Assembly (NCBI GenBank): GCA_964611095.1
Contig: CAZSWJ010000003.1
Coordinates: forward strand, 17,796 to 81,795
Origin: an uncultured Candidatus Peribacteria bacterium
GTDB taxonomy: Bacteria > Patescibacteriota > Gracilibacteria > Peribacterales > Peribacteraceae
Length of the DNA stretch: 64,000 nt
Direction: 5' to 3'
Shown here: positions 4,104 to 62,766 of the stretch, one piece after another
Position numbering within the stretch: the stretch's first letter is position 1
Layout of the letters: each line of letters begins with the position of its first letter
Made by a program: the position numbers and the translations under genes
Notes under the pieces: model-generated
What the model saw: only the letters and a program-made list of their open reading frames with translations
What the model was told of the DNA's origin: nothing
The model's database searches: none

Positions 4104-4571
4104 TTATAATCCAAGCTGCGTATATGTCTCGGATTTATAGTGGTAATCGTCATCTTTGTTCATGGTGTAGTTTTCTAGAGCATGCTTGATAATGGCTGCA
4201 TTGAAAGGAACGAAGATGGCTCCGATGTTATGGATCCAAGAAGGACAACGATCATCACTCTGCCGCGAGCCATTCAAGTTCACGCCAATGATCGTGCATC
4301 CTTTTTCGATGGCCACCTCGGCCTCCCACGGCACATACTTTCTCTTATATTTGGTATTTTCGCCGATGAGCTGGATGAACTTTCCTGCCATGTTGATGCG
4401 CTCACGACATTTACTTTTCACGTAGGCTTCATTATCAGAGTTAATGACATCCGGAAGTTGGCAGTCAGTAAAGTTAAAGTCGATATGCTCATGATTTTTC
4501 CAAGCCTGCATCAGGCGGTAATAATTGATGTCATCACTGCTGAAACCGACGAATGTGCGAGGTAAACTCAT
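4104..4571 (-). CDS. TIR-like protein (MTH538/DUF1863, ThsB-like)
   Basis: RTFVGFSSDDINYYRLMQAW ... FIQLIGENTKYKRKYVPWEAEVAIEKGCTIIGVNLN parallels ThsB (FFSFHYQD ... VLIGSQTFNRRWVRYEIMKSIEKGNKIIGIHIN, recalled from memory). Confidence 0.7.
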   Translation of the reverse strand: MSLPRTFVGFSSDDINYYRLMQAWKNHEHIDFNFTDCQLPDVINSDNEAYVKSKCRERINMAGKFIQLIGENTKYKRKYVPWEAEVAIEKGCTIIGVNLNGSRQSDDRCPSWIHNIGAIFVPFNAAIIKHALENYTMNKDDDYHYKSETYTQLGL

Positions 4572-4728: not shown

Positions 4729-4803
4729 TGGCTGGGGAGGAGGGATTCGAACCCCCGAATGACGGGTTCAGAGCCCGTTGCCTTACCGCTTGGCGACTCC
4801 CCA
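4729..4803 (-). tRNA. tRNA-Gln (anticodon CUG)
   Basis: The reverse complement folds as a cloverleaf: UGGGGAG/CUCCCCA acceptor, ACGGG-CUCUGAA-CCCGU anticodon arm, GGGGG-UUCGAAU-CCCUC T arm, encoded GCCA end. Close to E. coli tRNA-Gln. Confidence 0.95.
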
Positions 4804-7656: not shown

Positions 7657-9339
7657 GTGACGTCACATGGGCGTACACTCGTCTCCGTGCATCTCATACG
7701 ACGATATCCATGGCGATGTCTTTTGCTTGCCGGCACGGCGGCCGTCTACGCGTCATCGCTGTGGAACGGATTCGTGAACGTCGACGATCAGTTCCTCGTG
7801 ACCGAGAACGTGCACGTGCTCGTGCCGGCGTTCTCCAACGTATGGTACGTGCTCACGCACTTCGACCCGGAACTCTACATTCCCGTCACGTTCTTCTCGT
7901 ACCAAATCGAAACGTGGATCTTCGGTCCGCACGCGTGGCACTTTCATCTGATCAATCTGCTGCTGCACTTGGGATCGACGCTCCTTGCGTGGTCCATCGT
8001 GACGAAGCTGACGAAAAGTGACGTTGTCGGCGGCATCACAGCGGCGCTCTTCGCGTTGCATCCGCTCAACGCCGAGGCGGTTCTGTGGGTGAGCGCGCGC
8101 AAAGACATCCTGAGCGCGTTGTTCTTCTTGGCGTCCCTGCATCAGTATCTGCGCCACGACGAGACGAACGACAAACGATCCTACGCGAGGAGCATCATCT
8201 TCTTCGTCTTGGCACTCGGCAGCAAAGTGACGGCGTTCACGTTGCCCGTCGTTCTTCTGCTCATCGAGTTCGCGAAACGTTCCGGGCGAACGACATCGGC
8301 GAAAAAACTTTGGCCGTTCTTCGCTTGCTCGATCGTCTTCGGATGCATCGCGCTCGTCGGCAAGTCGGCGGTCACACAGACGATCGAGGCCGGACCGATG
8401 ATCATCATGGCATTGCGCTCGACTCTCTTCTACCTGCAACTCGTCATCGCTCCCGCGGGACAGGCGGTGATGCACGCGGTGCCGAAGACGATGCTGTTCT
8501 CCCCGCTCGTTTTACTCGCGATTCTCACGCTTCTAGGACTGACGCTTTGGCTTTGGAAAGCCAAGAAGGTGGTTCCGGCTGCATGGTGGGGATGGCTCTT
8601 TTTCTGCGTCACGTTGACGCCGACATTCCTGCACTACACGCGTGGCAACGAGTTCTATCTTCTGGCGTCCGAGCGCTACGCGTATCTTCCGTCGATCGGA
8701 ATTTTTCTGATCGTTGCCACAACTTGGACAAAACTTTTTTCACACCCGCAGGTTCGTGCATCGACGCGAACGATTCTCGTCATCGGTTCCTCGTGCGTCC
8801 TCGCGGTTCTCGGATTCCTCACCATTCTTCGCACGTTCGTGTTCCGTGACAGCGTGATGCTGCACATGGATACGCTCCAAAAGCACCCCGATGACAGCCG
8901 CGCGGCGTACGGACTCGCCATGGCACTCCAAGCCGATAAACGGCCCATGCAAGCCGAAATCGCGTATGAGGCTGCACTGAAGATGAAACCCGATTACGTC
9001 GACGTCGCCATCGACCTCGGCATCCTGCTCCTCGGAGAAGGACGACAAGAAGAAGGACTCGCGATGTTGGAGCGCGCGTCGATGATGAGGGATGATTCGT
9101 TCAAGGCGCACTACAACGTGGGCGTCGCGTATCAAAACATTTCACGATGGAGCGATGCGGCGGCGGCGTACGAAAAATCCATCGCGCTGTTTCCCGACTT
9201 CGCCGACGCGCACAAAAACCTTGCGACGGTCTACGGCAAGATGGGGAAGATGAAGGAAGCCGTACGGGAGCTGGAGATCCTCGGGACACTGGATCCGGAG
9301 ATTGCCAAAGCGCTCTCCGAAGCCAAAAAGAAGCTCTAA
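7657..9339 (+). CDS. TPR-repeat membrane protein, TMTC/PMT-like (GT-C) N-terminal domain
   Basis: N-terminal multi-TM region with the NGFVNVDD motif and a C-terminal run of TPR repeats (AYGLAMAL..., AHYNVGVAY..., AHKNLATVY...). GTG start; the start is uncertain. Confidence 0.7.
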   Translation: MTSHGRTLVSVHLIRRYPWRCLLLAGTAAVYASSLWNGFVNVDDQFLVTENVHVLVPAFSNVWYVLTHFDPELYIPVTFFSYQIETWIFGPHAWHFHLINLLLHLGSTLLAWSIVTKLTKSDVVGGITAALFALHPLNAEAVLWVSARKDILSALFFLASLHQYLRHDETNDKRSYARSIIFFVLALGSKVTAFTLPVVLLLIEFAKRSGRTTSAKKLWPFFACSIVFGCIALVGKSAVTQTIEAGPMIIMALRSTLFYLQLVIAPAGQAVMHAVPKTMLFSPLVLLAILTLLGLTLWLWKAKKVVPAAWWGWLFFCVTLTPTFLHYTRGNEFYLLASERYAYLPSIGIFLIVATTWTKLFSHPQVRASTRTILVIGSSCVLAVLGFLTILRTFVFRDSVMLHMDTLQKHPDDSRAAYGLAMALQADKRPMQAEIAYEAALKMKPDYVDVAIDLGILLLGEGRQEEGLAMLERASMMRDDSFKAHYNVGVAYQNISRWSDAAAAYEKSIALFPDFADAHKNLATVYGKMGKMKEAVRELEILGTLDPEIAKALSEAKKKL

Positions 9340-9568: not shown

Positions 9569-11497
9569 TCACGAAATTTTTTCTGAATGCGGAATTTCGG
9601 CTTCGGCTAAACGAATAAGAGCATCGCGAAGAATTTTCAATCCGTCTTGCGACAGAACTGATTCTGGGTGGAATTGCACACTCGCAAATTTCTCTCCTCG
9701 CATCGCGAACACGTCGCGCGTGTTTTCGTCGGAAGAAATTTCCACTCCGTCGACATGGTGCGACTCCGCGGCGAACGTGTTGTAGAACCCGGCGTTCGTC
9801 TTCGTTCCGAAGTAGTCGATCGGCTTCTGAATGCCTTGGAGAGGAGCGTCCATTTTCCGCACCCGTAAGCCAAGATCTCGTGCCATGATCTGATGCCCGA
9901 GACACACGCCGAACATCGGTTTTTTCTTCGTGCGAAGATCTCTGACAATGTCCGAAAGCGCGCGCATTTTCGGATTTTTTTCGTCGTTCGGATCTCCGGG
10001 ACCCGGACCAATGATGACGATGTCCGAATCATCCGATGCGGAATCGAATTCGGAAAACGGAACGACATTCGCGTTCGCACCCATGCGAACGATCATGTGT
10101 TGAAGTGTCCGGCAAAAATCATCACCGTTGTCGATGACGGTGATTTTTTTATTCATCAGCTCCGGGACGGCGAGCATTTCGGCGTGCTGATCATGGAGTG
10201 CGAACGACGAGAGCGTATCGTTGCGTCGCTCCAGCGCTTCGTTGATTTCCGCATCGAACTGCGGCATTGCGGGTACGGACACGGAAGATCGTTTATTCGT
10301 CTCCGTGAAGGCTCCCAAAATACCGCGTTTTTTGGCTTGCTCTTCACGTGCTTCCGAGTCCGGATCGGATTCGGAAACGATGGTGGATCCTGAGCGCACC
10401 GTCACGGCACCGTCACTTGTGACTTCGGCCATGCGGATGGCGATTGCGCTATCGAGCTTCTCGCGCCCGGCGTAATCGCGACCCAGCATCATGAGCGCTC
10501 CACCGTAATAACCGCGTGATTCCGGTTCGTACTTTCGAATAACGCGACACGCGTTCCCGAGCGGTCCGCCGACGACCGTGGGTGCGAACATCGACATGCG
10601 GAACAAATCGATGGCGCGACTGCGCGAATGTCCGATGAGTTCGTACTCCGTGTGAATGAGCCGGAGCATTTCTTTGAGAAGCGGTCCGACGACGACTCCG
10701 CCTTCGTCGCACATGTCGGACATCATCTTCAGTTCTTCATCGAGCACGCGACACAGCTCCATCGTTTCTTTTTTGTCGCCGAGGAACTTCATGAGGTCGG
10801 TCCGGAACTGCTTCAGGAGCGTGCGTCCTTCCTTGCGGAACGTGCCGCTGATGGGGTTCATGGTCACGTGGCCGTTGCTGACGGTCAGGTGCCGCTCGGG
10901 CGAAGCGCCGACCAAGTAGCGCTCTCCGTCGTAATACAGGAAATGCATGTACGAACCGAATTCCGTTTCCAGCAGTTTTCGGAAAACGGAGAGAGCTTTG
11001 GCGCGTGACATGTCGTCGATGGCGAACCGTGCCGCATTGGCGACAACGAAGTTCGATCCTTCGCCGCGTCCGATTTCGTCACGCTGCACGCGCCGTACGA
11101 TGTCGGCATATTCCGCCGGTGAAAACGTGTGAGCCATCGGCGACGTTCGGATTTCTTCGGCAGGGAAAAGATCGAGTGCGACTTGCCTGGAAATCATGGA
11201 GCGTGTGTCCACCGAAAGGGTGGAGATACGCTCGCCTGCGGAGCGCGCAGAGAAGCCACGTTCGCGGATTTGATTGAAAGGAATGGCGCTGACGGTATCG
11301 ATGATTTCACCATCGGCTTTGCTCTGTGTTTCCGGAATGTCGGCGAGTAAATCATGAAATGACGATTGCCCGTGAAAAATATGAACGCGTCGACCGAGTT
11401 CGGAATGTTTTTGCCCGCGCGCTATGGCAAACGGTTCGGTGCCGTCGAACAAATGTTCGAGGCTGTCTTTTTGCTGTGATGAAAGTTGGGGAGTCAT
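9569..11497 (-). CDS. trpE: anthranilate synthase, fused component I / glutamine amidotransferase (TrpE-G; PhzE-like architecture)
   Basis: Chorismate-binding domain (RGYYGGALMMLG, AIAIRMAEV, RSGSTIVSESDPDSEAREEQAKK), then a class-I GATase (FGVCLGHQ, VQFHPES). ATG at 11497 chosen; the track start at 11518 is TTG. Confidence 0.85.
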   Translation of the reverse strand: MTPQLSSQQKDSLEHLFDGTEPFAIARGQKHSELGRRVHIFHGQSSFHDLLADIPETQSKADGEIIDTVSAIPFNQIRERGFSARSAGERISTLSVDTRSMISRQVALDLFPAEEIRTSPMAHTFSPAEYADIVRRVQRDEIGRGEGSNFVVANAARFAIDDMSRAKALSVFRKLLETEFGSYMHFLYYDGERYLVGASPERHLTVSNGHVTMNPISGTFRKEGRTLLKQFRTDLMKFLGDKKETMELCRVLDEELKMMSDMCDEGGVVVGPLLKEMLRLIHTEYELIGHSRSRAIDLFRMSMFAPTVVGGPLGNACRVIRKYEPESRGYYGGALMMLGRDYAGREKLDSAIAIRMAEVTSDGAVTVRSGSTIVSESDPDSEAREEQAKKRGILGAFTETNKRSSVSVPAMPQFDAEINEALERRNDTLSSFALHDQHAEMLAVPELMNKKITVIDNGDDFCRTLQHMIVRMGANANVVPFSEFDSASDDSDIVIIGPGPGDPNDEKNPKMRALSDIVRDLRTKKKPMFGVCLGHQIMARDLGLRVRKMDAPLQGIQKPIDYFGTKTNAGFYNTFAAESHHVDGVEISSDENTRDVFAMRGEKFASVQFHPESVLSQDGLKILRDALIRLAEAEIPHSEKIS

Positions 11498-18718: not shown

Positions 18719-19237
18719 ATGCGCATACGAACTGCCCGTTGCATCCTGCGGCCCGTCCGACTCGCTGATGCAGATATTCTGCATTCTGCGATGCTCCATT
18801 CGAATTTTTCGAAAGGCCTGCGACGGAAAAGGGCTTTGACGACGGTCGATGCGATTCGCAGGCATACGAAGAAACATGCACGAAAAGATTCCTACTTTTG
18901 CAGCATTGTTCTGGCAAAAAGCAAAAGATGCATCGGGCGCATCGGCATAAGCAAGCGACGCGGCGACTCATGGCACCTCGCATATTGGTTGCACCCCGAT
19001 GAGCAACAACGCGGATATATGCGCGAATGCATCGATGGGTATCTGCGACGAATTTTCAGAACGACGGACATCGAAGCCATTTTTGCCGACTGTCATGTCT
19101 GGAATGCAGCCAGTCGACGCTTGCTCGAAAGGCACATGAAGAAAATACGCACCACAAAGACTCACCTCTATTTTAAGTCCGAAAGAACGACGACTCTCAG
19201 GTCGGCAGCTCGGCTGTCCGTTGACTCGGCTCAATGA
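18719..19237 (+). CDS. GNAT family N-acetyltransferase (RimJ/RimL-like)
   Basis: MRIRTARCILRPVRLADADIL N-terminus typical of the family, RGYMRECIDGYL. The 3' end overlaps convergent polX by 41 nt. Confidence 0.65.
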   Translation: MRIRTARCILRPVRLADADILHSAMLHSNFSKGLRRKRALTTVDAIRRHTKKHARKDSYFCSIVLAKSKRCIGRIGISKRRGDSWHLAYWLHPDEQQRGYMRECIDGYLRRIFRTTDIEAIFADCHVWNAASRRLLERHMKKIRTTKTHLYFKSERTTTLRSAARLSVDSAQ

Positions 19238-20162
19238 ACGGCAACGCAAGTGCCTTGTAGATGTCCTGCTCCGTTTTTGACGCCACCACCTTGTCATTCT
19301 TGAAGAGCGCGTACTCGGAGAGCTTCATGCCGCGGTCGATGGCGCGGCGCCGAAGCGAAATGTTGTGCTCCTTGCTGCCCGTGAAGTAGAGGAGCGCGCT
19401 GCCCCACTGCTTCTCTTCCACGATGCGGATGTCGGTGCGCAGACCGGACTTCAGGTCGAACGCGATGCGCGTGGGGCCCGATGCCACGATGCGCTCCACG
19501 ATGGGAAGTTTGGCGATGGCCTTGTGGATGGACTCGGCGAGTTCGGCGGACGCTTTTTTGACCGCAATGAGGACATCGACGTCGCCGACGGTTTCTTTCC
19601 TGCGACGGAACGAACCCGCGGCTTCCACGTGAATGGCTCCTTTGATTTTCCCGAGAGTCGTAACCAGAACGTTCACGTCGGGCTCCACGTCCTTGAGATT
19701 GAAACGCTTCGATCTCTCCCCCGAACGCTTGGCACTCTCCAAGATTTTCTTTTCCAGGGTTTCCGAAAACCGCGGCAGATCCCTGAGCTTTCCTTTCTCC
19801 GCGGCTTCGATGAGCTGCGGCACGGTGAGGATGCCGAGTTTCTCAAGCTCCCGCACGCGCTTGGGGCCGAGGTCGTCGACGGCGAGCAGTCCCGCGGCGC
19901 CCATCTGCGTTTCGGCTTTGAGCGCATCGAGGAAACTCATGCGGCCCGTCTTGAAGTACTCCAAAATTTTCTCGGCGATGGCATCGCCGACGCCGGGAAG
20001 TTCCTTGAGCGCCTTCTTGTCTTTGAACGAGGCAATGTCGGTACTCAAATCTTCGATCGTCTGCGCGGCACGACGATATGCGGCGGGCTTGAACTGGACT
20101 CCCTGGTAATCGAGAATGTCTGCGATCTGCCGGAGAAGCGCCGCAACGGCCGCATTTTCCAT
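19197..20162 (-). CDS. polX: DNA polymerase family X (Pol beta-like core, no PHP domain)
   Basis: HhH LKELPGVGDAIAEKI, catalytic GSFRRRKETVGDVDVLI, ALLYFTGSKEHN. ATG at 20162 (MENAAVAALLRQIADIL); the track ORF extends further upstream without support. Confidence 0.85.
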   Translation of the reverse strand: MENAAVAALLRQIADILDYQGVQFKPAAYRRAAQTIEDLSTDIASFKDKKALKELPGVGDAIAEKILEYFKTGRMSFLDALKAETQMGAAGLLAVDDLGPKRVRELEKLGILTVPQLIEAAEKGKLRDLPRFSETLEKKILESAKRSGERSKRFNLKDVEPDVNVLVTTLGKIKGAIHVEAAGSFRRRKETVGDVDVLIAVKKASAELAESIHKAIAKLPIVERIVASGPTRIAFDLKSGLRTDIRIVEEKQWGSALLYFTGSKEHNISLRRRAIDRGMKLSEYALFKNDKVVASKTEQDIYKALALPFIEPSQRTAELPT

Positions 20163-28941: not shown

Positions 28942-28960
28942 GGGGGGATTATACAAAAAA

Positions 28961-29036
28961 ATCCAAGAAACCAAAGTAACCAAGGAAACCAACGATATCC
29001 TTGGTTTCCTTGGATTCCTGGGTTTCTTTGGTTTCC
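28961..29036. repeat. nonamer-array palindromic element, copy A (CCAAGGAAA-type)
   Basis: ATCCAAGAAA CCAAAGTAA CCAAGGAAA CCAA - cgatatcc - TTGG TTTCCTTGG ATTCCTGGG TTTCTTTGG TTTCC. The inner 13 bp are perfect. Confidence 0.85.
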
Positions 29037-29086: not shown

Positions 29087-29105
29087 TGGGGCTCTAGCTC
29101 ATCTG
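29087..29105 (+). pseudogene. orphan 5' fragment of tRNA-Ala (19-nt exact copy)
   Basis: TGGGGCTCTAGCTCATCTG is identical to 29188-29206. The copy ends in the D-loop. Confidence 0.85.
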
Positions 29106-29188: not shown

Positions 29189-29264
29189 GGGGCTCTAGCT
29201 CATCTGGTAGAGCGCTTCCATGGCATGGAAGAGGTAAGGGGTTCGAGTCCCCTGAGCTCCACCA
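29189..29264 (+). tRNA. tRNA-Ala (anticodon GGC)
   Basis: GGGGCUC/GAGCUCC acceptor with G3:U70, CUUCC-AUGGCAU-GGAAG anticodon arm, AGGGG-UUCGAGU-CCCCU T arm, encoded ACCA end. Confidence 0.93.
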
Positions 29265-29981: not shown

Positions 29982-30042
29982 AAGGAGCTTCTTTCGCGTT
30001 GCCCCGACCACGCGAAGCTGGTAGCCTTGGCGGGCTGCAAAT

Positions 30043-30065
30043 ACGTGCGCCCGTAGCTCAGCTGG
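30043..30065 (+). pseudogene. orphan 5' fragment of tRNA-Arg(GCG) (23-nt exact copy)
   Basis: ACGTGCGCCCGTAGCTCAGCTGG is identical to 30134-30156. The copy ends in the D-loop. Confidence 0.85.
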
Positions 30066-30137
30066 CCCAGGCGCGCGAAGCAAGCCGTCCAAATAGAAAG
30101 AATGCGGACGTTGCGAGATTCTTTACATCACAGACGT

Positions 30138-30214
30138 GCGCCCGTAGCTCAGCTGGATAGAGCATCAGCTTGCGGAGCTGGGGGTCGTAGGTTCAAATCC
30201 TGCCGGGCGCACCA
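30138..30214 (+). tRNA. tRNA-Arg (anticodon GCG)
   Basis: GCGCCCG/CGGGCGC acceptor, GCUC..GAGC D stem, UCAGC-UUGCGGA-GCUGG anticodon arm, GUAGG-UUCAAAU-CCUGC T arm, ACCA end. Confidence 0.88.
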
Positions 30215-30223
30215 ATTCTTCAT

Positions 30224-30289
30224 AAGCTGGATAGAGCATCAGCTTGTGAGCTTAAGGGTCGTTTGGTTCAAATCCTGCCGGGCGCACCA
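30224..30289 (+). pseudogene. 5'-truncated tRNA-like copy 1 (starts in D-loop, degenerate anticodon arm)
   Basis: AAGCTGGATAGAGCATCAGCTTGTGAGCTTAAGGGTCGTTTGGTTCAAATCCTGCCGGGCGCACCA. It has no 5' acceptor strand. Confidence 0.8.
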
Positions 30290-30298
30290 ATTCTTCAT

Positions 30299-30406
30299 AA
30301 GCTGGATAGAGCATCAGCTTGTGAGCTTAAGGGTCGTTTGGTTCAAATCCTGCCTGCCCACCGTAGTCCTTTGCGGAGCAAAGGCGAAGGAGGGCCGGGC
30401 GCACCA
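30299..30406 (+). pseudogene. 5'-truncated tRNA-like copy 2 with a 42-nt hairpin insertion (30355-30396)
   Basis: Identical to copy 1 up to CCTGCC. Then tgcccaccgtagtCCTTTGCggaGCAAAGGcgaaggagggcc, then GGGCGCACCA. Confidence 0.8.
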
Positions 30407-37929: not shown

Positions 37930-37944
37930 TGCTGATCGACTACA

Positions 37945-37974
37945 TGCACATCAGTGCCCTTGTAGCTCAGCTGG
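37945..37974 (+). pseudogene. orphan 5' fragment of tRNA-Arg(UCG) with 8 nt of leader (30-nt exact copy)
   Basis: TGCACATCAGTGCCCTTGTAGCTCAGCTGG is identical to 38042-38071. Confidence 0.85.
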
Positions 37975-37978
37975 CCCA

Positions 37979-38002
37979 GCTTTGCGGCAGCAAAGCGTTT
38001 TT
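37979..38002 (+). terminator. rho-independent terminator
   Basis: GCTTTGC-ggca-GCAAAGC followed by GTTTTT. Confidence 0.65.
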
Positions 38003-38052: not shown

Positions 38053-38129
38053 GCCCTTGTAGCTCAGCTGGATAGAGCGCCTGGCTTCGGACCAGGAGGT
38101 CGTGGGTTCGAATCCTGCCGGGGGCACCA
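38053..38129 (+). tRNA. tRNA-Arg (anticodon UCG)
   Basis: GCCCUUG/CGGGGGC acceptor (two G:U pairs), CCUGG-CUUCGGA-CCAGG anticodon arm, GUGGG-UUCGAAU-CCUGC T arm, ACCA end. A TACAAT box lies 10 nt upstream. Confidence 0.88.
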
Positions 38130-62596: not shown

Positions 62597-62675
62597 GGAA
62601 TCCAAAGAAACCCACGAAACCAAAGAAACCAAGGATTCGTTGGTTTCCTTGGTTTCTTTGGTTGCCTTGGCTTCC
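62597..62675. repeat. nonamer-array palindromic element, copy B
   Basis: GGAATCCAAAGAAACCCACGAAACCAAAGAAACCAA - ggattcg - TTGGTTTCCTTGGTTTCTTTGGTTGCCTTGGCTTCC. Starts 4 nt after the uvrA stop. Confidence 0.85.
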
Positions 62676-62766
62676 TCCCTGAAACATTCATAACATTGCA
62701 GAAATCATTTTTTATGATATCGTCACCCACAATTTCTCCATCTTCTACTACTTCTACCTCTTCTTT

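Follow-up and report, generated by a model that had tools for sequence, protein, structure and literature searches.

Why does an intact transfer RNA (tRNA) gene lie among pieces of itself, and why do several of those pieces break at the same point of the D-loop? The question is raised by the tRNA-Arg(GCG) locus of an uncultured Candidatus Peribacteria bacterium, a member of the Candidate Phyla Radiation (CPR). The DNA analysed here, called the window below, is a stretch of 64,000 nucleotides (nt) from this organism (assembly GCA_964611095.1, contig CAZSWJ010000003.1, positions 17,796-81,795, forward strand), and coordinates are positions in the window unless a related genome is named. An earlier note on this DNA had described at the locus a 5' orphan, an intact gene, two truncated copies, a hairpin and a palindrome, all of which we find where it had placed them. 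For comparison we used the orthologous loci of about 15 related assemblies (labelled L001 and so on), with every tRNA scanned for partial copies. In this analysis the organism was placed in Candidatus Peribacteria by the relatives of a VTT/DedA protein gene, situated between tRNA-Ala and tRNA-Arg(GCG).

Results

The sole functional tRNA of the locus is the intact tRNA-Arg(GCG) gene at 30138-30214 (plus strand), which encodes its CCA end and was called by ARAGORN and by the Rfam tRNA model RF00005 (66.5 bits); a tRNA was considered functional if its cloverleaf reached the threshold of that model (29 bits) or was called by ARAGORN. tRNA is made only from this gene. Upstream of it, on the same strand, lies the 5' orphan (30043-30065), a 4-nt leader followed by tRNA positions 1-19, identified through its exact repeat, the orthology of its flank and its presence in four independent assemblies. 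Its 23-mer, ACGTGCGCCCGTAGCTCAGCTGG, recurs exactly 91 nt downstream, at 30134-30156. A search of 1.8 kb with Rfam gave no tRNA match in the orphan region (30043-30137) even at E<=5. Orphan and gene are separated by a 68-nt spacer (30066-30133, plus strand), which is single copy in the window, has homologues in L084, L088, L091 and L101 and is absent in L001. This spacer opens with CCCAGG and closes with TTTACA, a weak -10-like box; in between are an A-rich tract and the mini-hairpin motif GCGAAGC.

The sequence upstream of the orphan tells which of the two 5' ends is the older. A conserved promoter-like block on the plus strand (29999-30027) consists of TTGCCC (29999-30004), 17 nt and TAGCCT (30022-30027), the pattern across relatives being TTGnnn, 17 nt, TAGCCT; its reading as a promoter was made by eye, and a consensus scan gave no flag there. 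In our alignment A2 this block precedes the orphan in the window, L084, L088 and L101, and precedes the intact gene itself in the orphan-less L001, L093, L098, L005 and L004. By this orthology, tRNA-Arg(GCG) originally began at the 5' orphan, which has been displaced but is still joined to the conserved upstream region. In L001 the upstream flank runs straight into the gene, the flanks matching across the insertion, as in an empty site. The comparison thus shows that 91 nt, made up of the spacer, a new leader and fresh positions 1-19, were inserted in the D-loop between G19 and A20 (GTAGCTCAGCTGG|ATAGAGC) and that the gene stayed intact. The region directly upstream of the working gene is unlike the conserved block, and a promoter of its own within the spacer is doubtful because the -10-like box is weak and not conserved. 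Transcription of the gene may still start at the old upstream block and run through a long leader.

Four further assemblies of this population show 100% identity to the window over tRNA-Ala, the gene for the membrane protein, the orphan, its spacer and the intact gene, and one of them (L124) also spans most of the first truncated copy described below; the architecture is therefore real. All four contigs stop inside the repeats, at 30164, 30167, 30244 and 30279, and for the number of 75-nt units on the 3' side this assembly is the only source. Contigs assembled from short reads in several populations (the ends of L124-L127, and L085-L087) likewise start or stop exactly at tRNA-fragment repeats, and the arrays of L088 (~19235-19335) and L102 hold masked or gap runs of N. 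Such loci systematically break assemblies, and they may hide elements inserted there. That the repeats themselves are an artefact would fit these contig ends and N runs, as well as the short reads, which leave the 75-nt copy number unfixed. Against an artefact stand the identity in four other assemblies and the recurrence of the architecture, in diverged sequence, in many unrelated assemblies from different studies, and we hold this explanation to be extremely improbable.

The D-loop break recurs at other genes. In the window, tRNA-Ala(GGC) (29189-29264) is preceded by a 5' orphan of positions 1-18 (29087-29105, plus strand) and an 82-nt spacer, and tRNA-Arg(TCG) (38053-38129) by an orphan made of a leader with a -10-like box and positions 1-19 (~37941-37974, plus strand). 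The palindrome AGCTGG-C-CCAG(G/C) lies at 30060-30072 and again at 37969-37981. The tRNA-Gln gene of the window has no orphan and no fragments nearby. In about 10 related genomes the 5' orphans of Arg(GCG), Arg(TCG) and Ala end at position 18/19, with one exception at position 13, and at least six unrelated junction sequences share this breakpoint, so that the shared break proposed in the earlier note is real and far more general than that note could tell. The outer boundary of the orphans is variable, the repeat extending from 1 to ~47 nt into the leader or promoter. A fixed inner and a variable outer boundary is the pattern expected of an integrase attachment (att) site. The pieces at Arg(GCG) are also those expected of att scars beside an intact gene: positions -4 to 19 in the orphan, and 14-76 and 65-77 in the 3' fragments. 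Long 3' copies begin at position 14 in the window and at position 21 at the Ala gene of L001. At unrelated loci fetched by the same query, such fragments were found at only 2 of ~21 tRNAs.

The spacers between 5' orphan and gene are uniformly 64-83 nt long. Within one genome, spacers of different tRNAs can be aligned (z 4-7, values that a common base-composition layout may inflate), and L088 has the junction start CCTAGGCG at both Arg-GCG and Arg-TCG and GTCGnGAC at both Ala and Arg-TCG. In a distant organism (L052, reverse strand, oriented 2420-2546) we also noted a 16-nt 5' orphan of a tRNA-Ser-like gene that ends in the D-loop, only 21 nt upstream of the gene.

The distribution of the orphans among relatives is patchy, and their copy number varies between genomes. 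The Arg(GCG) orphan is present in the window, L084, L088/89/90, L091 and L101 and absent from L001, L004, L005, L093, L098, L099 and L102. The Ala orphan is present in the window, L084, L002, L004, L088/89 and L093 (with a homologous spacer in L084, L002 and L004) and absent from L001, L003, L091, L098, L099 and L101, the spacer being missing as well in L001 and L003. The Arg(TCG) orphan is present in every genome in which the locus was seen, and its unit often stands in tandem, two or three times (L001, L088/L089, L102). At Ala, the outgroup L003 has a short leader like that of the window's orphan; the leader of L001 matches the window's gene-proximal leader, from which we infer that L001 probably lost its orphan by deletion. 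None of the relatives compared shows plain tandem tRNA genes free of the shared breakpoint, the ancestry by ordinary decay against which the earlier note had set its own proposal.

The 3' side of Arg(GCG) holds two truncated units, both on the plus strand. The first (30215-30289), found by repeat scans and giving no tRNA score, consists of a 10-nt trailer and tRNA-like positions 14-76 with a damaged anticodon region; the second (30290-30354), found by the same scans and represented by an orthologous fragment in L004, consists of trailer and positions 14-67 and ends in CCTGCC. Tandem Repeats Finder reports a 75-nt period, with 2.7 copies, at 30151-30354. Both truncated copies start at AGCTGG (30225 and 30300), and both fail the test for a functional tRNA: the 1.8-kb Rfam search gave no tRNA match in 30215-30406 even at E<=5. 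They differ from the gene solely between the anticodon loop and the 5' T stem (TTGTGAGCTTAA...GTTTGG versus TTGCGGAGCTGG...GTAGG in the gene), which confirms the difference previously described in the anticodon region and adds the T stem to it.

The stretches 30190-30264 and 30265-30339 are 100% identical over 75 nt and are bounded by a 15-mer, GGTTCAAATCCTGCC, repeated at 75-nt distance. The middle copy is therefore a tandem duplication between the 15-nt repeats, and the earlier state was the gene with one truncated copy. Real insertions do abut tRNA 3' ends in relatives (see below), in line with the interpretation of the earlier note; the second truncated copy does not count as a recombination event of its own. 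The older truncated copy is common to the window and L004, including the odd TTGTGAGCT change. In each of these genomes copy and gene agree in their T-loop variant, a sign that sequence has been exchanged between the two.

Beyond the second truncated unit lies a rod-like hairpin of 42 nt (30355-30396, plus strand), recognised by folding and by comparison with relatives, in which an outer stem encloses GTAG, an inner stem-loop and CGAA. It folds as previously drawn, at -21.7 kcal/mol; this energy is no better than that of shuffled sequences (z -1.5). The hairpin is followed by a terminal 3' orphan, GCCGGGCGCACCA (30394-30406, plus strand; tRNA positions 65-77, identified by repeat scan and relatives), and then by conserved host flank. 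Similarly built hairpins, with GTAG or TGAG, a variable inner stem-loop and CGAA, stand directly before the terminal CCGGGCGCACCA in L004, L091 (twice) and L093, their stem sequences altered yet still pairing; the versions in L001 and L005 are degenerate. Like hairpins also occur before the Ala 3' fragment in L088 and after the Arg(TCG) 5' orphan in L101, and in a scan of 433 kb the hairpins adjoining tRNA orphans made up 6 of the 10 matches to the GTAG/TGAG...CGAA motif. In L001 the T-stem strand CCTGCC follows the hairpin and belongs to the terminal fragment.

The hairpin had been taken as an insert into the last truncated copy. Its presence in relatives, between two nested 3' fragments, speaks against this, and the 3' structure of the window is best read as two nested fragments, of positions 14-67 and 65-77, split by the hairpin. 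The hairpin and the final GCCGGGCGCACCA form a module common to several relatives. 3' fragments follow Arg(GCG) in the window, L001, L004, L005, L091 (two) and L093, and follow Ala in L001 (two identical long copies from position 21), L088 and L093. Downstream of tRNA-Arg(GCG), three relatives carry a conserved stretch of ~110 nt that is absent from the window (L005 1060-1165, L091 ~11055-11165, L101 1850-1960). It contains a AAACCTnnGGTTT hairpin, a CTCTC..CTCTCyTTyCCC tract and a second hairpin, and it has no Rfam match.

A hairpin of another kind directly follows the Arg(TCG) orphan of the window (37979-38002, plus strand). With its G+C-rich stem-loop, GCTTTGCGGCAGCAAAGC, followed by a T run, it has the features of an intrinsic terminator; the 42-nt hairpin, the Arg(GCG) spacer and the Ala spacer do not show these features together on the plus strand. 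In L102 the corresponding hairpin reads GCCCCGC/GCGGGGC, and L001 and L102 differ in it by three compensatory changes.

The fragments show both decay and conservation. Orphans gather point mutations in L084, L088, L089 and the oldest L001 unit (three changes), and within one orphan the 99%-identical L088 and L089 have diverged, each by its own change; the orphans are therefore not strictly selected. The D-loop end of the orphan changes together with the gene in L101 and L102, which exchange by unequal crossing-over could explain. The terminal GCCGGGCGCACCA is unchanged in L001, L004, L093 and both copies of L091, and its 12-mer CCGGGCGCACCA is perfect in six lineages while the neighbouring sequence diverges. 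Conserved stems and a conserved 12-mer point to some selection on the hairpins or on the 12-mer. We also observed the same change at tRNA position 9 (TAG to TGG) in three independent decaying orphans (L084 Ala, L088 Ala and L001 17201-17220), which may reflect a mutational hot spot or avoidance of CTAG/TAG.

Insertions of larger size were found on the 3' side of tRNA genes, which gives partial cases of an occupied site. In L093 (6218-7260) a 24-nt direct repeat, TCCCCTGAGCTCCACCACACTTCG, made of the tRNA-Ala 3' end and trailer, flanks ~1 kb of DNA with an AT-rich open reading frame (ORF) of 290 amino acids that matched nothing in Pfam or PHROG. The whole is a small cassette, lacking an integrase, at the 3' end of a tRNA. 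In L088 (8491-9463) 973 nt directly follow tRNA-Ala where the 99%-identical L089 has 26 nt (8835-8860). The L088 DNA carries an NlpC/P60 gene resembling phage tail lysins and no integrase. L088 has in addition a degenerate 3' fragment and a duplicated trailer hairpin, CTCATGGCAAGCCA, which is also found after tRNA-Arg(GCG) in L001. The trailers of tRNAs differ between close relatives.

The start of the window is a prophage-like region adjoining tRNA-Gln(CTG) (4729-4803, minus strand). It encodes a large terminase subunit (40-990, PHROG E 3e-33), a large serine integrase (1100-2476, PHROG E 1e-54, with Pfam Resolvase, Recombinase and Zn ribbon domains) and a ThsB-like TIR protein (4104-4571, minus strand). 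We considered this serine recombinase as the agent at Arg(GCG) and rejected it: it sits in a prophage end ~27 kb away, and, as serine integrases are not known to make long direct repeats, we do not connect it with the locus.

Two further features of the window concern other subjects. At 28954-29036 and 62598-62676 there are long hairpins of 9-nt repeats, (GAAACCAAA)n facing (TTCCTTGGT)n, which sit between genes like two-way terminators and gave only spurious microRNA matches in Rfam. Relatives have hairpins of the same kind in the same place with other 9-mers (GAATACAAA in L084, GTGAAAAGT in L002/L003). The CGN arginine codons are apparently served by tRNA-Arg(GCG) and tRNA-Arg(TCG), not by an ACG tRNA. 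The usual bacterial reader of CGN is the ACG (inosine) tRNA, and the arrangement with GCG and TCG is uncommon in bacteria.

Discussion

How, then, did the pieces come to lie around the gene? We favour, with a probability of roughly 45%, the reading that the locus consists of scars of site-specific recombination anchored in the D-loop, later reshaped by deletion and unequal crossing-over. According to this reading, the founding events would be conservative site-specific recombination of the tyrosine-integrase type, with crossover in the D-loop or at the junction of T stem and acceptor. The incoming DNA would have borne the 5' part of the tRNA when it integrated upstream, or the 3' part when it integrated downstream, and the bodies of the elements would afterwards have been lost by deletion, except for the short stretches still present. 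The arrays would then have grown, shrunk and become partly uniform through unequal crossing-over between the short repeats. As to the two truncated units, they are a single older displaced 3' part (positions 14-67), duplicated by unequal crossing-over or slippage between the 15-nt repeats.

Several observations weigh against such an origin. No tyrosine integrase was found in Pfam scans of ~45 ORFs of the window or in the Pfam listings of the relatives' loci. No genome has a kilobase element between 5' orphan and gene, and an occupied 5' site was not found among the genomes compared. Four pattern scans of IMG/VR viral contigs, in which CPR elements are possibly poorly represented, gave no attP-like match and returned only ordinary phage tRNAs or matches in coding sequence. 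In L101 the duplicated block includes a near-identical promoter region, with only ~23 nt of unique filler between the copies, which has the appearance of local duplication. There is a weak resemblance between some post-orphan sequences and the 3' end or trailer of the same tRNA, and the terminal 12-mer and the structure of the hairpin are better conserved than neutral scars should be. Of the earlier proposal of repeated recombination or insertion at the D-loop, the shared breakpoint, a genuine 91-nt insertion at G19/A20 and real insertions at tRNA 3' ends are supported; the integrase, the occupied site and the attP-like sequence that would complete it were missing from these searches.

The absence of any visible integrase or element would follow naturally from purely local evolution, in which a segment containing the tRNA was duplicated in tandem, through slippage or unequal crossing-over, and the surplus copy hollowed out by deletions within it. 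Microhomology, or the cloverleaf into which single-stranded tDNA folds, would guide these deletions, and the remnant would be either a 5' stub with bits of the 3' end attached or a 3' part that has lost its 5' end. The perfect tandem units with their variable copy number fit this well, as does the promoter region found inside the duplicated block in L101, L001, L088 and L102. In several units the post-orphan stretch can pair with the acceptor strand of the orphan. The sequence after the window's Ala orphan matches its own tRNA trailer hairpin at 14 of 15 nt (p ~0.008), and that after the Arg(TCG) orphan of L093 matches tRNA positions 65-82 (p ~0.01). Such local matches, at two loci, are not borne out by whole-spacer alignments to the tRNA body or trailer, which show no overall significance (z<=1.2; 2-3 of 15 at p<0.05), and we rejected the orphan unit as an internally deleted full tRNA copy. 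Moreover, no intact tandem duplicate was seen in ~15 assemblies at three loci; a tandem duplication predicts a conserved block upstream of the working Arg(GCG) gene, where there is no such resemblance; and local deletion gives no reason for endpoints within 2 nt of G18/G19, reached independently at three tRNA species. We regard a wholly local origin as a serious, if rather unlikely, explanation.

Selection on the fragments as working cis-elements is compatible with either origin. The post-orphan hairpins could end transcription coming from upstream genes or from old promoters, and the hairpin with the tRNA 3'-end 12-mer could be a site for processing, for protein binding or for decoy recombination. 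The stem of the Arg(TCG) post-orphan hairpin, kept through its three compensatory changes, is what such a role would lead one to expect, and in the window this hairpin is a textbook terminator. The GTAG/TGAG...CGAA hairpins, with altered and still pairing stems, adjoin Arg(GCG) and Ala orphans and one 5' orphan; CCGGGCGCACCA stays perfect amid diverging neighbours, the D-loop part of the orphan changes with the gene, and the units persist in very small genomes. On the other hand, close relatives (L001, L003, L098) do without the units and show no visible replacement, two 99%-identical strains differ within the same orphan, most hairpins have no T run, the folding energies of the 42-nt hairpin and of the orphan regions are no better than those of shuffled sequences, and no Rfam family matches. 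Taken as a general account of the fragments, selected function seems to us quite unlikely. We give slightly more credit, while still thinking it unlikely, to a small process or module of the Peribacteria, independent of any integrase, that places a hairpin of ~25-40 nt at the D-loop or at the T-stem/acceptor junction and duplicates the adjoining tRNA end, the resulting hairpin-plus-tRNA-end units being selected afterwards. Such units may act in termination or insulation, carry processing signals, or draw recombination away from the working gene as decoys.

A number of other candidates were considered and rejected. A dispersed repeat of the repetitive extragenic palindrome or miniature inverted-repeat transposable element type (REP/MITE) does not fit, the hairpin and the spacers being single copy in the 64 kb (pattern search and blastn-short). 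Known RNA families were searched with Rfam at gathering and E-value thresholds, which gave only true tRNAs and spurious matches. For the GTAG/TGAG...CGAA hairpin, a hammerhead, a K-turn and a T-box were rejected by eye on their missing core nucleotides, and a rod with tandem G-A mismatches is the best reading. A diversity-generating retroelement would leave adenine-specific differences between gene and copies, which is not the pattern here, and the post-orphan sequence is not the reverse complement of the orphan, as a fold-back (inverted) duplication at CAGCTG would make it. Finally, a split or permuted tRNA gene does not agree with the intact gene, with the damaged anticodon arm of the 3' fragments or with the relatives that do without one or other piece.

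If the fragments are integration scars, then recombination targeted to the D-loop is a common event in this CPR lineage, whose genomes are very small; it includes the rare upstream type, by which a tRNA gene exchanges its promoter and 5' end, and tRNA loci would be the main sites at which such genomes take up and lose DNA. If, instead, the hairpin-plus-fragment units are made locally or kept by selection, they would represent a new kind of tRNA-linked element. In practical terms, the repeats break short-read assemblies at tRNA genes and can mislead the annotation of tRNA genes and of genomic islands.

Comparison with known systems

The 2016 Peribacteria genome paper (PMC4736985) makes no mention of tRNA fragments. 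Among the systems with which the locus may be compared, a REP/MITE element with a GTAG head resembles the 42-nt hairpin in having GTAG followed by a palindrome; however, the hairpin occurs once in the window, has its GTAG inside the outer stem, and is a locus-bound orthologous element. Short tandem duplication, by unequal crossing-over or slippage, accounts for the perfect 75-nt unit between its 15-nt repeats and for the differing counts of orphan units among relatives, but leaves the founding events and the shared D-loop breakpoint unexplained.

The standard mark of integrase-mediated insertion is a displaced tRNA fragment, a signal exploited by Islander (PMC4383910); on the displacement of tRNA fragments by integrative elements, PMC8371274 cites Williams 2002. 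The locus differs from integrase att scars in that only 10-80 nt, with no integrase or island, lie between fragment and gene, and in that many fragments are 5' parts and units stand in tandem arrays. It resembles them in the intact tRNA gene beside a direct-repeat fragment, in the range of the fragments from an internal sublocation to slightly past the gene end, in the empty site of relatives, in the nested or tandem fragments, and in trailers swapped between relatives.

The earlier note had set the D-loop site apart from the crossover sites usually described. Unusual it is, but it has been described before. The pTN3-like integrases of archaea have as attB a tRNA gene's 5' half, and a promoter of the element then drives the restored gene (PMC8371274). 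Here, too, incoming DNA would have replaced the 5' part and promoter of the tRNA gene, with the old 5' part left as an orphan; unlike here, those integrases are archaeal and have the att site inside the integrase gene, whereas our locus has no such gene and its Arg(GCG) spacer promoter is doubtful. In Klebsiella pneumoniae, islands integrate upstream of arg2, and the repeat consists of the 5' acceptor half, D-stem and D-loop (bioRxiv 10.1101/2020.11.02.365908). Those are full islands with integrase genes in a proteobacterium, whereas the window holds scars only, in a CPR organism and at Ala as well as two Arg genes. Nevertheless, the two share the repeat of 5' acceptor strand, D-stem and D-loop, insertion on the upstream side, and a tRNA-Arg target with the same GTAGCTCAGCTGGATAGAGC type of D-arm.

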